Origin: an uncultured Bacilli bacterium
GTDB lineage: Bacteria > Bacillota_I > Bacilli_A > RF39 > UBA660
Length of the DNA stretch: 44,452 bases
Direction: 5' to 3'
Assembly (NCBI GenBank): GCA_944363825.1
Contig: CALVVK010000001.1
Coordinates: forward strand, 1 to 44,452
Numbering within the stretch: the first letter of the stretch is position 1; every line of letters begins with the position of its first letter. The notes under the pieces were generated by a model. The model was not told where the DNA came from. It worked only from the letters and a program-made list of their open reading frames with translations, and searched no databases. The translations under genes were made by a program, and so were the position numbers. Positions 33,938-43,605 of the stretch are shown one piece after another.

Positions 33938-34987
33938 ATGAATAAAGAAATATTAATAATAATACCTGCTTATAATCCCCCGATTAAATTATTCGAAGCC
34001 CTTTTAGCCAAGTTGGATGGGGCTTTTCAAAATGTTTTAATAGTAAATGATGGTTCAGATGAAACATATAATGATTTTTTTAAAAATGTAGAAAGGAAGT
34101 ACCGAGTTTTAAGACATGAATATAATTTAGGGAAGGGAAGAGCAATTAAAACGGCTTATAGTTATGCAATAGATAACTATCCGGATGTTTTAGCCTATGT
34201 GGTGATTGATTGTGATAATCAGCATGATGTCGATGATATGATTAATTGTTGTAAAGAAGCAATAGAGCACCCTGATAGTTTAGTTATTGGGGTTAGAGAC
34301 TTTTCTTTAGAAAACGTTCCATTTAAAAGTCGTTTTGGCAATATAATAACCCGAACAATGTTTAAATGGTTATTTAATTATGATATCAGTGACACGCAAA
34401 CTGGTCTTAGAGCCATTAGTCCTAAATTTGCCCCAAAACTTTTAAATGTGGCAGGAGATCGCTATAATTATGAACTTAAATGTTTAATTGTCTGTTGTGA
34501 AGAAAATATTCCCATAATTGAAGTTCCTATTAAAACTATCTATATTGAAAATAATAAGGAATCACGGTTTAATCCGGTGAAAGACTCAATTTTAATTTAT
34601 AAAGAATTTTTAAGTTATTATTTAAAATTGTTTATTCCTTATTTATTAGGTTTAATTATCTTTTTAATAACATTTTATTTTTGGAATTCTAGTGATGATT
34701 TGAAGGCTCTTGTATTAGTTAATTTTATTGCAGGAATTATTAATTTAGTTGCTAATATCTTAATTAATTATAAAAATATATATAAACATAATAATTTAAG
34801 TAATAATTTAGTATATATTTTAAAGAAAATACTAAAAATATTTATAGCAGGATTCTTTATTTATATTTGTTATAATTTACTTAACATTAATCTTTTAATA
34901 AGTAAGGTCATAATTGATATAATATTAACTATAATTATATATATGGTATTTAGAAATGTAGGCTTTAAGAATGAAAAAAAGAACTAA
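33938..34987 (+). CDS. Family 2 glycosyltransferase with a C-terminal multi-TM (GtrA-like) extension
   Basis: ILIIIPAYNP...NDGSDE...IDCDNQHD (DxD). The C-terminal ~130 aa is hydrophobic. Confidence 0.75.
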   Translation: MNKEILIIIPAYNPPIKLFEALLAKLDGAFQNVLIVNDGSDETYNDFFKNVERKYRVLRHEYNLGKGRAIKTAYSYAIDNYPDVLAYVVIDCDNQHDVDDMINCCKEAIEHPDSLVIGVRDFSLENVPFKSRFGNIITRTMFKWLFNYDISDTQTGLRAISPKFAPKLLNVAGDRYNYELKCLIVCCEENIPIIEVPIKTIYIENNKESRFNPVKDSILIYKEFLSYYLKLFIPYLLGLIIFLITFYFWNSSDDLKALVLVNFIAGIINLVANILINYKNIYKHNNLSNNLVYILKKILKIFIAGFFIYICYNLLNINLLISKVIIDIILTIIIYMVFRNVGFKNEKKN

Positions 34988-35618
34988 TATAGTTATAATT
35001 GTTATTTTAGCAATATTACTGATAATTGAAATAGTTTTAGTTAAGAATAATTATTTTAATAGTATAGATAGTTATGTATATAGTTATGTTGCTAAGTTTA
35101 TTAGTCCTGTTAATACAGCAATATTTAAGTTTTTTGCTTTTTTTGGTTCGGAAATATTTATAATTGGGTTAATTATATTAGTACCTTTACTTTATAAGAA
35201 AAGGGGTAGAGGAGTAGGGTTTGCTTTTATTTTAGTGTTATGTTTGTTATTTAACCAAGCCTTAAAGTTGATAGTGGCTCGTCATCGCCCGGAGATTAAT
35301 GTCTTAGTTGTGGAATCGAATTATAGTTTTCCCAGTGGTCATACGATGATTGCCGTAACTATTTTAATGTTATTATTATCATATTTGTGGTCTAGTAAAC
35401 GAGTAGGGAAAAAAGTATGGAAGATCGTTATGACAGTTTTATTAGTGATATTTGCGCTACTAATTATGCTTAGTCGCATTTATTTAGGAGTTCACTATTT
35501 CAGCGATATAATTGGTGGTATAACGGCTGCTTTACTTTTACTCGCTATAATTTATTACTACTACTCTTTTAAGTATAAAGTCCCCTACTTTCCTGATAAT
35601 AAAAATAGGGGAGTATAA
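34971..35618 (+). CDS. PAP2-family phosphatase (undecaprenyl-diphosphate / lipid phosphatase-like)
   Basis: KLIVARHRPE...PSGH...SRIYLGVHYFSD, the three PAP2 motifs. Confidence 0.85.
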   Translation: MKKRTNIVIIVILAILLIIEIVLVKNNYFNSIDSYVYSYVAKFISPVNTAIFKFFAFFGSEIFIIGLIILVPLLYKKRGRGVGFAFILVLCLLFNQALKLIVARHRPEINVLVVESNYSFPSGHTMIAVTILMLLLSYLWSSKRVGKKVWKIVMTVLLVIFALLIMLSRIYLGVHYFSDIIGGITAALLLLAIIYYYYSFKYKVPYFPDNKNRGV

Positions 35619-35653
35619 CCTTATATTTATATAAAATAATGTTTATACGCGCA

Positions 35654-35689
35654 TTATAACCTTATTAATATATTTAAATAAGGTTATAA
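35654..35689 (+). terminator. 13-bp perfect inverted repeat downstream of the PAP2 gene (terminator-like, no strong T-run)
   Basis: TTATAACCTTATT-aatatattta-AATAAGGTTATAA. Confidence 0.4.
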
Positions 35690-35856
35690 GTAAATAAAAT
35701 ATTTTATATTGATGAACACGTGTAATTATAATTTAAATTTATTTGGAATATGATTTGGGTTGATTTAGAAATTTGATTGTAATTAAATATTAGATTAAAA
35801 TTAATAATGGTATATGTAAATTATCATGAAAATGTTGTTATTTAGAAAATTATGAT

Positions 35857-35884
35857 ATTAAGAATAATATATATTATGTTAACT
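35857..35884. other. Candidate dif (Xer recombination) site
   Basis: ATTAAGAATAA-TATATA-TTATGTTAACT. The central hexamer and the XerD arm match B. subtilis dif (ACTTCCTAGAA-TATATA-TTATGTAAACT, from memory) at 16/17, and the E. coli XerD arm at 10/11. It lies in the gap between convergent gene blocks. Confidence 0.6.
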
Positions 35885-36020
35885 TAATTACGGGCAGATT
35901 TCCCGGAAATATGGGAAAAATAGCCTAAATTACCCTAAAATACTAATTATTGACTAATATTTTATTACTCTCTTTATATATATAACTATTTGCGAACGTA
36001 TATATGTTATTAGAAATAAT

Positions 36021-36051
36021 AAAAGATTCTAGTTTGTTCTAGAATCTTTTT
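36021..36051. terminator. 12-bp perfect-stem hairpin that could terminate transcription in either direction
   Basis: AAAAGATTCTAG-tttgtt-CTAGAATCTTTT followed by T. It lies 133 nt downstream of the gtrA-like stop. Confidence 0.55.
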
Positions 36052-36183
36052 CAGGGGTTTTAATAAATGACCAAAACACCGGATTTGACCAGATATAAGG
36101 AAACTTTTTGTTTCCTCAATTTGTATTTTAACATAATCTAAAATAAGAGTCCATAGGAGATGGTGTCTACTTTTGTCGAAGTT

Positions 36184-36591
36184 TTACTCCCCTGCTCTTT
36201 CAATAAATATCTTTCTAGTAATAAAATTATAAACCATGACGATACCTGTTGCGAGGATTTTACATAACATGTAATAAATATGTAATAAATCAACACCGAG
36301 ATACATTACTAATTGATTAATACCTAGGCCAAAAATACTTAAAATAACAAATACTGCAACTTCTTTGATAGTTTGCTTCATTTTGACATCAAATACCCAG
36401 AATATACTTAATATATAATTATAGACTAATGATACGGTAAAAGATATTATGGAAGATATTAAATAATGGATATGGCAAAACTCAGTTAAAACATATAATA
36501 GACCGGCATCAATTAAAAAGGCAGTAAAACCAACGATTCCAAAGCGGAATATTTGTTTAAATAATTTGCTATGAATAAATTTATTTATCAT
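36184..36591 (-). CDS. GtrA-family membrane protein (putative polyprenyl-phosphate-sugar flippase)
   Basis: RFGIVGFTAFLIDAGLLYVL, 4 TM segments, 135 aa. Confidence 0.8.
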   Translation of the reverse strand: MINKFIHSKLFKQIFRFGIVGFTAFLIDAGLLYVLTEFCHIHYLISSIISFTVSLVYNYILSIFWVFDVKMKQTIKEVAVFVILSIFGLGINQLVMYLGVDLLHIYYMLCKILATGIVMVYNFITRKIFIERAGE

Positions 36592-37507
36592 AATTTTTCC
36601 TCATATTTAAATATAATTCATATAATTGTTTATGTTTTTTAACTATGACTTCTAAAATAATGCCAGTGATCCATAAAAGGATACTAAGTACTAAGAAAAT
36701 TGATGCGACAATTAAAGTTGGGAATCTAGGAACTAAGCCAGTTTGGAAATATTCGATAACTACAGGAATACCAAAAATAAGGGCTAAGGCTAGAAAGATT
36801 AAAGCACAAATACCAAAGAAATAAAATGGTTTATATTCTTTAAATAAAGTGGCAATCATTCTAAGAACTTTAATTCCATCGCTATAAGTATTAAGTTTCG
36901 AAACACTTCCTTTTGGGCGATCACGATATTCAACGGGAACTTCGACTAATTTAAAGTTTTTATCGACAGCATGAATAGTCATTTCGGTTTCGATTTCAAA
37001 GCCTTTAGATAATACGGGAAAACCCTTAACAAATTCTTTACTGAAGGCACGATAACCAGTCATGATATCTTTTACTTTATTTTTGAAAAGAAAATTAATT
37101 AAAAACCGGACGATGCGATTACCAAAGTTATGAAAAGGCCGCTTGTTTTCGGTAAAATAAGTGCTAGATAAACGGTCCCCAATAACCATATCAGCCTTAC
37201 CTTCTAAAACTAAATTACACATTTCTTGGGCATTTTCAGCTGGGTAAGTATCATCGCCATCGATCATTAAATAACAATCAGCATCAATTTCGCGGAACAT
37301 TGTCCGAATAACATTCCCCTTCCCTTGGCGATATTCATATCTAACAATTGCCCCCGCCTTTTTGGCGATTTCAGCTGTACCATCAGTTGAATTATTGTCA
37401 TAAACATAAATATCAGCATTTGGTAAGGCTTTTTTATAATCACTTACTACTTTACCAACAGTTTGGGCTTCATTATAACATGGGATTAAAACTGCTATTT
37501 TTTTCAT
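36581..37507 (-). CDS. Family 2 glycosyltransferase, GtrB/CsbB-like (polyprenyl-phosphate sugar synthase)
   Basis: IAVLIPCYNE...YDNNSTDGT...IDGDDTYP and two C-terminal TM segments. It overlaps the gtrA-like gene by 11 nt. Confidence 0.8.
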   Translation of the reverse strand: MKKIAVLIPCYNEAQTVGKVVSDYKKALPNADIYVYDNNSTDGTAEIAKKAGAIVRYEYRQGKGNVIRTMFREIDADCYLMIDGDDTYPAENAQEMCNLVLEGKADMVIGDRLSSTYFTENKRPFHNFGNRIVRFLINFLFKNKVKDIMTGYRAFSKEFVKGFPVLSKGFEIETEMTIHAVDKNFKLVEVPVEYRDRPKGSVSKLNTYSDGIKVLRMIATLFKEYKPFYFFGICALIFLALALIFGIPVVIEYFQTGLVPRFPTLIVASIFLVLSILLWITGIILEVIVKKHKQLYELYLNMRKNYDK

Positions 37508-37556
37508 TTTTTTACTACTCCTTATTACTTATATTATAACTTATTAAATTTTAAAA

Positions 37557-39362
37557 TCAATCCTTTTTTTCTAAGAAAACACCAATTATAAATGGCATGG
37601 CAAATATAAATGGTAAGGCATATCTAAAATACGTATTGGCGGGTCCCACAACACAGACTAAAATTAGAACGATGACTGGGGCTAAAAAGAGAATGTATTT
37701 ATATAATTTTTTATAAATAGCATAAGTTAGGAAGGCTAAGATTAACCAAACATTAAAACCGATATTAGATATTAGACCAACTACGGGAATGTATGGGAAA
37801 GCAACAGCAACACTTGATAAAATGTTGCGCATTCCACTTAATGAGTTGTAGTGATAATCAAAACCATCTTCGGTAATGCGATCATCAAAATTATAATAAA
37901 CATACCATTTAGTTTTTTCGGGATAAAAGAAGCCATAGACATTGTTCATTGTTGCTTCGATATATGTTCCGGGATGTTTTAAAAGACAATTAAACCAAAC
38001 TTTAAAATAGGCTTTTAAGTCTTCGTCTGTCGCATACTTGTTAAATTCGTTTTTGACATCATCGGCTAGTTCGGGATCGTATCTTTCAGCAAGGGTATCA
38101 ATGCCAAGAATTTTATCAATTGCAGCGATTTCTTCACTATTTAACTCATCACCATGGTATAAAACATATCTGGCGGTTTGTTGAAATGGAACGGATAAAA
38201 CTTCTCTAATACTTCCCGGGGTAATTTTAAAATATGGTAAAATTACTTTATCAAATACGCCATAAAAGCCAAAGACACAAACCATCACAATCAGTAACTG
38301 GCGCCATATTTTACGGGCCACAATAATGGTAAATGGTAAGGATAAAATTAAGACATGAATACCATTATTTCTAAATAAACAAATCAAAATTAAAAGAATA
38401 ATTATAAGTAAATAATGCCACCATTTATACCCTACTCCTTTAGTCTTAATTAAATTATGCAAGAAAATTAAATAAAGGAAGATAAATGCCCCAAATAAAA
38501 CGTCTTTAACGCCACTCATCGCATAAAGCGGAAACATTGGTACTAAGGCATAAATAATGAGGACACCAATTAAATATTTGGTTTTAAGATGCATTTTCTG
38601 CATGTAATAAATACTAAAGGCAAAAACTCCCGCTAGAATGGTAATTTGAATTATACTATAGAAAAATAAACCTAAATTATCGTTACCAATCATTGTCCCT
38701 AGTTTTAGACAACTCCCAAGTAAGACTGTATGAGTTACGGGGTGATGATTAGTCATTACCACGTTTTCGTCTAAAAGAATCGCATAGTCGGCATATTTAG
38801 TCCGAATACCAAAGAATTGTTTTATTTGAAAACTAGGATCTGGTGATAATATAATCGGATAATAAGAAATTATATAAGGTAACCAACAGATAATGATGAA
38901 AACAAAACTAAATAAAAAGGGATGTTTTTTAAAAGTATTAATTAACTTATTAGATTTTTCTTTATTAGAATCCGTAAAATTATTTTTATCTAAATAGCGA
39001 AATAAATAACTAATTAAGACTAAAAATAAATAATAATAACCAATAAACATAACAATGGAAATTAGAAAATAACCAATATTTTTAAATATTAAAGTGGTAC
39101 TACCAACTTGCATAAAACTATTACCAAAAATCATAAAAAAGGCTAATATTAAGCTTAGAACTTTTAAGGATTTTTTCTTTTTTATTATGGAACTTTTTTG
39201 ATAGAATTTAAAAATAAAGTATATTAATAAGACACTACCTAAAATGCCTAATTTAAATAAATTGCGTGTATCCCCTTCATATAAGTTATAAATATTAAAA
39301 CCTAGGGCCATAAAGGTACATAGTACTAATAAATATTGTTTTAATTTTTGCAATATAATCAC
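37557..39362 (-). CDS. Large polytopic membrane protein, putative GT-C-type glycosyltransferase (GtrC/YfhO functional role)
   Basis: 601 aa with more than 12 predicted TM segments and a soluble loop. It is the first gene of the operon that contains the GtrB- and GtrA-like genes. The start is uncertain (GTG at 39362 or a downstream TTG). Confidence 0.6.
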   Translation of the reverse strand: MIILQKLKQYLLVLCTFMALGFNIYNLYEGDTRNLFKLGILGSVLLIYFIFKFYQKSSIIKKKKSLKVLSLILAFFMIFGNSFMQVGSTTLIFKNIGYFLISIVMFIGYYYLFLVLISYLFRYLDKNNFTDSNKEKSNKLINTFKKHPFLFSFVFIIICWLPYIISYYPIILSPDPSFQIKQFFGIRTKYADYAILLDENVVMTNHHPVTHTVLLGSCLKLGTMIGNDNLGLFFYSIIQITILAGVFAFSIYYMQKMHLKTKYLIGVLIIYALVPMFPLYAMSGVKDVLFGAFIFLYLIFLHNLIKTKGVGYKWWHYLLIIILLILICLFRNNGIHVLILSLPFTIIVARKIWRQLLIVMVCVFGFYGVFDKVILPYFKITPGSIREVLSVPFQQTARYVLYHGDELNSEEIAAIDKILGIDTLAERYDPELADDVKNEFNKYATDEDLKAYFKVWFNCLLKHPGTYIEATMNNVYGFFYPEKTKWYVYYNFDDRITEDGFDYHYNSLSGMRNILSSVAVAFPYIPVVGLISNIGFNVWLILAFLTYAIYKKLYKYILFLAPVIVLILVCVVGPANTYFRYALPFIFAMPFIIGVFLEKKD

Positions 39363-42702: not shown

Positions 42703-43605
42703 TTATTCAATTCCTTTTTCTTTGTGGGCTCGAGGATGATGTTGATAATCTTCCTCGATTTTTTTATTGCTTAAATGGGAATATATTTCCGTTGTAACTA
42801 AATTTTCATGACCTAAAAGTTCTTGAATTACTCTTAAATCAGCCCCATTATTAAGTAGGTATGTAGCAAATGAATGTCTTAAAACATGGGGTGATACTTC
42901 CTTTTCGATGCCTGATTCTTTAGTTATTTTTTTGAGAATCTTAAAAAACCCTTGGCGACTCATTTTTGCCCCATTTTTATTTAAAAATACATAGTCACTA
43001 TTTTTTGTTTTTAAAATAAAACGACGATATTCATTAATATATAACATTAAATAATTAATTGCGGTATTGCCCATGGGAACAATACGATCCTTTTTTCCTT
43101 TCCCTAAAACCCGAATGATACATTCATCAAAATCAATTTGATTCAATTTTAAATTAATTAGTTCACTAATTCGAATACCAGTAGCATAAAGGACTTCCAG
43201 CATGGCTTTATTCCGATAATCAGTGGGTTTAATTAATTTAATATCGAGTAATTTATCAATTTCGGCACTTGTTAAATATTTGGGTAAGGTCCGTTCTAAT
43301 TTGGGAGTTCTAATTCCCGCACAAGGATTAATTTTAAGTCGTTCGTTAAATATCATATATTTGTAAAATGAATTTAAAACCGTTAGATAATGGGATTTTG
43401 TTTTGGGGGATGCATCCAAATTGTATAAAAAATTCTTGATATCTTGGGTAGTAAATTCTAAAATATTCTTCTTTATTGCGCTACTGATCATTTTTAAATT
43501 TTCCCCATATGACTCTACCGTATTATCAGATAATCTTCGTTCATATTTTAAATATTCTAAATAAAAAATAATATTTTTATCTTCAATGCTTGCAATTACA
43601 TTCAT
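42703..43605 (-). CDS. Tyrosine recombinase, XerC/XerD family
   Basis: N-terminal SAM-like domain (YLKYERRLSDNTVESY). Catalytic residues lie in ...ATGIRISEL...HVLRHSFATYLLNNGADLRVIQELLGHENLVTTEIYSH. Confidence 0.88.
   Translation of the reverse strand: MNVIASIEDKNIIFYLEYLKYERRLSDNTVESYGENLKMISSAIKKNILEFTTQDIKNFLYNLDASPKTKSHYLTVLNSFYKYMIFNERLKINPCAGIRTPKLERTLPKYLTSAEIDKLLDIKLIKPTDYRNKAMLEVLYATGIRISELINLKLNQIDFDECIIRVLGKGKKDRIVPMGNTAINYLMLYINEYRRFILKTKNSDYVFLNKNGAKMSRQGFFKILKKITKESGIEKEVSPHVLRHSFATYLLNNGADLRVIQELLGHENLVTTEIYSHLSNKKIEEDYQHHPRAHKEKGIE

Follow-up and report, generated by a model that had tools for sequence, protein, structure and literature searches.

A 28-bp sequence, ATTAAGAATAATATATATTATGTTAACT, found at positions 35857-35884 of the forward strand of the DNA analysed here, is identified with a probability of about 0.9 as the chromosomal dif site of its host, of the kind recognized by the tyrosine recombinases XerC and XerD (CodV and RipX in Bacillus subtilis). 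The stretch of DNA under study, referred to here as the window, has 44,452 nucleotides and constitutes the entire contig C1 of an assembly of 81 contigs and 1.02 Mb, with about 30% GC and a completeness of 70.7%. The host is an uncultured gut Bacilli bacterium with a genome of approximately 1.2-1.4 Mb and 30% GC, from a genus that includes Firmicutes bacterium CAG:460 and Candidatus Onthocola. The site belongs to a known kind and presents two noteworthy departures from it, namely a degenerate XerC arm that is specific to the genus and a GC skew at neutral positions that does not reverse at the site.

The preliminary description of this DNA had proposed a dif-like 28-mer with the 11-6-11 architecture of Xer sites, and the sequence indeed follows this layout as ATTAAGAATAA-TATATA-TTATGTTAACT. 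The left arm, on the XerC/CodV side, is ATTAAGAATAA (35857..35867, + strand) and combines six outer nucleotides, ATTAAG, that are unconserved with an inner AATAA that is invariant in the genus. It is followed by the central TATATA (35868..35873, + strand), which is the same as the centre of B. subtilis dif and where strand exchange would take place, and by the right arm, on the XerD/RipX side, TTATGTTAACT (35874..35884, + strand). Alignment to the dif sites of B. subtilis, ACTTCCTAGAATATATATTATGTAAACT, and Escherichia coli, GGTGCGCATAATGTATATTATGTTAAAT (Kono et al. 2011, PMC3025954), bore out the claims made for this half of the site: centre and right arm together match B. subtilis at 16 of 17 positions, and the right arm alone matches the XerD arms of both species at 10 of 11. 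The same proportion (10/11) holds against TTATGTNAANT, the sequence by which the XerD-side arm of the dif class is recognized. The left arm compared with the reverse complement of the right one is the same at 7 of 11 positions, giving the site an imperfect dyad symmetry.

The left arm is as weak as had been described, with 5 of 11 positions matching B. subtilis and 6 of 11 matching E. coli. Against the consensus of the lineage, ACTTCCTAKAA, it again reaches only 5 of 11, and its outer part scores -3.8 bits in a position weight matrix (PWM) built from canonical sites. The XerC arm is generally allowed more variation than the rest of the site (PMC3025954) and, because a variable XerC arm is accepted in the literature, this mismatch lowers the fit of the sequence without excluding it from the dif class.

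Beyond the XerD arm, a semi-conserved flank, TAATTACGGGCA (35885..35896, + strand), can be compared with the genus consensus WAATTRTGRRAA. Six flank positions (30, 31, 32, 35, 39, and 40) carry 0.8-1.1 bits each, clearly above the left flank, and the consensus includes a second TTATG-like word, while sister genera have TTCTAT after the arm. These 12 moderately conserved nucleotides could prolong the contact made by XerD or form an accessory site.

The site lies in a 565-nt intergenic gap with 22% GC (35619..36183), which is the largest stretch of the window free of open reading frames, as had been noted. The gap separates two convergent gene blocks, the block on the + strand ending at 35618 and the block on the - strand starting at 36184, and each block ends in a hairpin, two further points of the preliminary description that hold up, given that both hairpins fold far better than shuffled sequences. 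The first, an AT-rich hairpin after the last + strand gene, which encodes a PAP2 phosphatase (35653..35691, + strand; -12.4 kcal/mol, z -5.3), is probably a terminator, and the second, which follows the last - strand gene, gtrA-like, with a 12-bp stem and a T run (36021..36050, - strand; -13.3 kcal/mol, z -5.7), is terminator-like. A scan of the gap 35619-36183 against Rfam at E<=1 matched no family. An inverted word resembling the XerD arm, TTATGTTAAAA, is present on the - strand at 36126-36136, 242 nt to the right of the site and beside a small + strand hairpin (36098-36116); this half-site was taken as a chance occurrence, the exact arm or its one-mismatch variants being found 56 times in the assembly.

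In DNA of 30% GC, a conserved AT-rich palindrome could in principle have another role, as promoter, operator, or terminator, or could resemble dif by chance. The region does contain promoter-like consensus matches, although their number (12, compared with 8.6 +/- 3.2 in shuffles) is not in excess, and the 28-mer itself folds no better than its shuffles (z -0.2). The genes directly adjoining the site differ between species while the 22-mer formed by its positions 7-28 does not, which argues against a regulatory element specific to any gene. These observations, together with the distance that separates the site from the next best match to the PWM (10.6 bits) and its homology to canonical dif sites of other families, make such a role or a chance match extremely unlikely.

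The flanking genes of the window have their own peculiarities. The PAP2 gene on the left (34971-35618) and a three-gene operon on the right (36184-39362), comprising GtrA-like, GT2, and DUF6020 genes, are missing at that position in most congeners, where the neighbours of the site are instead a GT2 gene and a ZIP transporter. The neighbourhood of dif looks like an insertion hotspot for envelope-glycosylation genes.

The 28-mer occurs once in the assembled 1.02 Mb (70.7% complete), and the next most similar 28-mer has five mismatches. When the assembly was scanned with the PWM, derived from eight dif sites of other Bacilli families plus that of B. subtilis and leaving out the genus itself, the site in the window obtained the top score (23.4 bits), followed by a second match at 12.8 bits. 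The preliminary description had predicted that the site should be the single best match to a dif profile and that equally good copies should be absent; both expectations agree with what was found in this 70.7%-complete assembly. Congeners with a match likewise have one strong hit each, the exceptions being weaker or differently flanked second hits in two genomes, G057 and G060. The second dif-like site of G057, AAATCCGATAA-TATATA-TTATGTTAACT, is found on a small separate contig (C131:799-856), and its outer arm, AAATCC, is unlike the chromosomal type of the genus. It could derive from contamination, as the genome is rated 4% contaminated, or could be a plasmid site or the partner site of an IMEX.

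Sites of this last kind raise the question of whether the 28-mer could serve a mobile element (IMEX, phage, or plasmid) for attachment or resolution rather than being the chromosome's own dif. Such elements do mimic dif, and the second site of G057 shows that a dif-like sequence may sit on a small separate contig. Nevertheless, throughout the genus there is one copy per genome, at the same junction of the two arms as judged by synteny; in the window the site is not bordered by phage or plasmid genes, and neither the window nor the assembly holds a partner site. A mobile origin is therefore regarded as very unlikely, and the sequence is better understood as a chromosomal dif.

Conservation across the genus is high. 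Of 55 other species of the genus, 42 contain an exact, single-copy match to the 22-mer AATAATATATATTATGTTAACT, which corresponds to positions 7-28 of the site, and three further species differ from it at one base. Counting any match, 31 of the 34 high-quality genomes of the genus have one; with the pattern read backwards as a control, matches appear in only 5 of 56 genomes. In the 46 genus sequences compared, positions 7-11 and the TATATA centre are identical in all (46/46), and the right arm varies only at position 24 (2/46) and position 28 (1/46). As many as 22 of the 28 bases of the site are essentially invariant genus-wide; the invariance of positions 7-28 is partly built into the search, yet almost all matches were obtained without any mismatch in the core.

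The exact 22-mer is rare elsewhere. Among 185,579 species genomes it occurs in only 64 stretches, nearly all from Bacilli or Bacillota according to their record titles, and most of them from gut metagenome-assembled genomes titled "uncultured Bacilli" or "Tenericutes". Firmicutes bacterium CAG:460 and two Candidatus Onthocola species are among them, and the flanks of their sites place them in the genus. In the matches from Lactobacillaceae and Paenibacillus that were examined, the 22-mer is preceded by a recognisable left arm of dif type. Other Bacilli families have ACTTCCTATAA-TATATA-TTATGTTAACT or close variants of it.

The left arm represents the first of the two departures. Its outer positions 1-6 hold between 0.15 and 0.94 bits against a background of 30% GC, and as many as 33 different hexamers are found among the 46 genus sequences; only position 2 (T, 38/46) and position 6 (A, 39/46) exceed the background. 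The preliminary description had considered a weak left arm usual for the XerC side, an explanation that does not stand, since the outer ACTTCC is well conserved in sister genera and in other Bacilli families and its loss is specific to this genus. Because these relatives keep ACTTCC, the loss is a derived trait that goes beyond the ordinary looseness of XerC arms.

The sister genera of the same family show the opposite distribution of conserved bases. Their left arm is A[CG]TTC[CG]TATAA, and their centre is variable (TTGATA, TACATA, TCAATA, TTTATA, or TGTATA). Their sites and those of other families, which can be summarized as A[CG]TTC[CG]TATAA-NNNATA-TTATGTTAACT, have both the XerD arm and the inner part of the XerC arm in common with the site described here and are evidently homologous to it, but they retain the outer XerC arm and vary the central hexamer, whereas the genus does the reverse. 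Constraint appears to have been traded between these two parts of the site from lineage to lineage, the genus fixing TATATA and freeing the outer arm. An order-wide pattern search allowing three mismatches proved too permissive, as the controls matched equally often, and only clear canonical sites were used from it, in a qualitative manner.

The free drift of the six outer bases in the genus suggests that recognition by XerC may have shrunk to the inner AATAA, aided by cooperative contacts with XerD. RipX is able to bind both half-sites of B. subtilis dif (PMC5357621), which is the basis for proposing that XerC could rely on AATAA and on cooperation with XerD.

Both recombinases that such a site requires are encoded in the assembly, which contains exactly two tyrosine recombinases, each with a complete set of catalytic residues. 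The XerC/XerD-family gene that had been reported 6.8 kb from the site is real and XerD-like: it is an orthologue of xerD (ripX), located on the - strand at 42703..43605 and encoding 300 amino acids. Its product obtains 319.8 bits with the XerD model TIGR02225 (cut-off 329.6) and 294 with the XerC model. It aligns to E. coli XerD (1A0P) with 197.6 bits, compared with 143 bits for its paralogue, and the residues aligned to R148, K172, H244, R247, H270, and Y279 of E. coli XerD are all there. In the four congeners measured (G011, G044, G047, and G048) the XerD orthologue is 1.7-5.2 kb from the site.

The paralogue, XerC/CodV-like, is encoded on contig C4 (21003-21875), scores 301 with the XerD and 299 with the XerC model of NCBIfam, and has its catalytic motifs. 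An orthologue of this XerC-like gene is present in 53 of 55 other genomes of the genus, with at least one match in 54 of them, and a XerD-like paralogue is listed in most of the 55. Systems based on a single recombinase, such as XerS/difSL of streptococci and XerH/difH of Helicobacter and Campylobacter, resemble the present case in having one half-site that is far less conserved, but they use sites of other lengths and sequences and one dedicated recombinase, whereas here there are two enzymes of XerC/D type. The XerS model gave 110.5 and 120.6 bits for the two recombinases, with a cut-off of 267, and XerH matched both only distantly (approximately 78-79 bits). The combination that marks those systems, a large dedicated recombinase beside an atypical site of at least some 31 bp, is not found here, the site being of the 28-bp XerCD type.

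A gene for a translocase of the FtsK/SpoIIIE family was searched for in this 70.7%-complete assembly and was not found, which most simply reflects a gap in the assembly. A strong match to FtsK, of approximately 745 amino acids, exists in 52 of 55 other genomes of the genus, and alpha, motor, and gamma domains were recognized in the one that was inspected. A further protein, of approximately 1,520 amino acids and with several ATPase domains of FtsK type, is encoded by many congeners. The known guide motifs of KOPS/SRS type, GAGAAGGG and GGGNAGGG, are essentially absent. The word GAAGAAG is oriented towards the site in around 90% of its occurrences on both arms of the chromosome of congener G011, as are around 90% of the genes, and other purine-rich words behave similarly. 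Because of this co-orientation of genes the bias of the motif is inseparable from coding bias, and the polarity of guide motifs, being no greater than that of the genes themselves, was dropped as evidence for dif.

The mechanism can be modelled by homology with the CodV/RipX-dif system of B. subtilis and the XerCD-dif system of E. coli. The XerD orthologue encoded 6.8 kb away would bind the invariant right arm TTATGTTAACT, and the XerC/CodV-like paralogue from contig C4 (21003-21875) would bind the left half. Cleavage is predicted at the borders of TATATA, where both enzymes would exchange strands and convert chromosome dimers to monomers at cell division, with the FtsK/SpoIIIE-type translocase of the genus presumably joining the two copies of dif at the septum.

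According to the account of Sciochetti et al. 2001 given in PMC5357621 and PMC3025954, dif of B. subtilis is acted on by CodV (XerC) and RipX (XerD) and positioned by SpoIIIE/SftA; activation by FtsK has not been shown for this species (PMC5357621). Both that site and the present one have 28 bp in an 11-6-11 layout, an identical TATATA centre, and right arms alike at 10 of 11 positions, and in both cases there are two paralogous Xer recombinases, a location at the arm junction roughly opposite dnaA, and a translocase of the FtsK/SpoIIIE family (here, in the genus). They differ in that the genus has an unconserved AT-rich sequence in place of the outer ACTTCC and A instead of T at position 7, in the proximity of xerD, which in the measured congeners is only a few kb from dif, and in the neutral-site skew that is not reversed at the site in this genome. 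With the E. coli system formed by dif, XerC-XerD, and FtsK-gamma there is agreement in the XerD arm (10/11), in the inner ATAA of the XerC arm, in the XerD orthologue with its similarity to 1A0P and its full catalytic set, and in the gamma domain of the FtsK of a congener. However, the centre is TATATA here and TGTATA there, and the outer XerC arm GGTGCG of E. coli is missing.

The position of the site on the chromosome also corresponds to that of a dif. As whole-chromosome skew is not computable for a genome in 81 contigs, the near-closed congener G011, with a contig of 952,861 nt out of approximately 1.2 Mb, was used instead. The window genes to the left and right of the site have orthologues around the site of G011, ordered and oriented in the same way. 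Three features of G011 change direction at dnaA and again at the site: the co-orientation of around 90% of genes, the total GC skew (-0.30, +0.20, and -0.31 in successive segments), and the intergenic skew. The maximum of the cumulative G-C curve (714,482) is 0.7 kb from the site (715,184), and its minimum (158,473) is next to dnaA (156,855-158,171). The distance from dnaA to the site is 557 kb, or about 46% of the genome, so that a location roughly opposite dnaA, as had been anticipated, holds in this congener. In two closed genomes of other Bacilli families, the canonical site is found at 49.6% (G034) and 50.4% (G038) of the chromosome from dnaA, and it is through G011 and these two genomes that the arm-junction position is observed. 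The same convergence of genes is seen in ten further congeners and in one genome of a sister family, whose total skew is positive before the site and negative or near zero after it.

In the present genome the evidence on position is local and consists of the convergent switch of genes and a maximum of cumulative skew at 35,923. The preliminary description had predicted a skew extremum at the site and had proposed a replication terminus on these grounds. The extremum does exist, and the site does mark the junction of two arms of gene orientation, but the skew at neutral positions gives a different picture. First codon positions in the window have a GC skew of +0.46 to the left of the site and of -0.33 to the right. 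Third codon positions, on the other hand, keep their sign (+0.32 and +0.25), and so does the intergenic DNA (+0.28 and +0.14). Because only the first codon positions flip, the local extremum is due to the coding strand alone. Given the unchanged third-position and intergenic skew, a meeting of forks and an end of replication at the site are no more than plausible.

This second departure extends beyond the window. Two clean classes of contigs can be separated in this genome by the GC3 skew of their genes in coding sense. In one class the majority genes have approximately +0.35 and the minority genes approximately -0.33, and in the other the values are approximately -0.05 and +0.25. At four-fold sites of G011, the dnaA-side arm has 176 majority genes of leading type (GC skew +0.32, AT skew -0.11), and the other arm has 213 of lagging type (GC skew -0.17, AT skew +0.10). 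A strong dnaA-side arm is found in eight congeners (G011, G015, G018, G044, G045, G047, G048, and G051) and also in a sister genus, with two genomes in which the majority genes of the other arm are clearly inverted. In genus g29, majority genes of the other arm have values of -0.23 to -0.36, against +0.44 to +0.54. Considering the eight congeners and the two sister-genus genomes, the other arm is weak or inverted in 9/10; both arms of G045 are strong, and G064 is roughly balanced around its origin.

As seen in this genome, in seven congeners, and in the two sister-genus genomes, the arm that starts with dnaA-dnaN has a third-position GC skew in coding sense of approximately +0.35 to +0.55, and the other arm has values near zero or inverted, with around 90% of its genes still pointing towards dif. 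Relative to dif, this genome has its strong arm on the left-arm side and seven congeners have theirs on the right-arm side. G206 is also asymmetric in neutral-site skew; a genome of a further genus, G115, is symmetric, as is the control G038 from another family, analysed with the same code. Misassembly or an artefact of the ORF caller was excluded as the cause of the asymmetry by the two-sided synteny, by the symmetry of G038 under the same code, and by the presence of the effect at four-fold sites.

The asymmetry bears on a further alternative, according to which the sequence would be a genuine dif without being the end of replication: the fork from the dnaA side would often or always pass dif and copy the other arm, and dif would serve only dimer resolution and segregation at a fossil arm junction. 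Such a reading would account for the third-position and intergenic skew of the window, which keeps its sign while only first codon positions flip, for the two clean GC3-skew classes of the contigs, for the lagging-type majority genes (213) of G011 facing leading-type ones (176) on the opposite arm, for the recurrence of a strong dnaA-side arm in eight congeners and, outside the genus, in two genomes, and for the clear inversion in genus g29. It would also demand that an orientation of around 90% of genes towards dif on both arms be kept up under head-on replication, which is very hard to maintain, and against it also stand the flip of the intergenic skew of G011 at both dnaA and dif and the lack of a gradient along the 557 kb of the weak arm of G011. 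A model of replication in a single direction fits the minority genes of G011 poorly, and in its pure form it was set aside, as it agrees with the AT skew of these minority-strand genes and disagrees with their GC skew. Other causes of asymmetric skew are moreover conceivable, and passage of the fork through dif is considered rather unlikely. The same low expectation applies to the combination of a strongly asymmetric replication, in which the dnaA-dnaN-side fork would run through dif and the other arm would be copied head-on, with an XerC recognition cut down to a 5-bp inner half-site; at present this is a doubtful proposal.

Asymmetries of this type are documented. SkewDB lists approximately 250 chromosomes with "asymmetric skew" and describes them as difficult to account for (PMC8941118). 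Like the genomes considered here, these chromosomes have one arm with strong skew and another with little or none (PMC8941118); in the present case, by comparison, the asymmetry has been resolved at the level of third-codon and four-fold sites, is linked to the dnaA side, and extends over many uncultured species of one family.

Assignment of the 28-mer as dif is a matter of routine annotation that anchors the terminus-side junction of the arms in the fragmented genome of an uncultured gut lineage, and it provides a 22-nt marker for the ordering of contigs across the genus. The loss of the outer XerC arm, specific to this genus, offers a natural experiment for gauging, with XerD binding intact, what portion of the XerC half-site is necessary. 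In this genome and in its relatives, the switch of gene orientation, dif, and total GC skew coincide, yet the skew at neutral sites is not reversed. If it is true that this asymmetry reflects replication, it would bear on the chromosomes with "asymmetric skew" and on the reasons why genes are co-oriented with replication.
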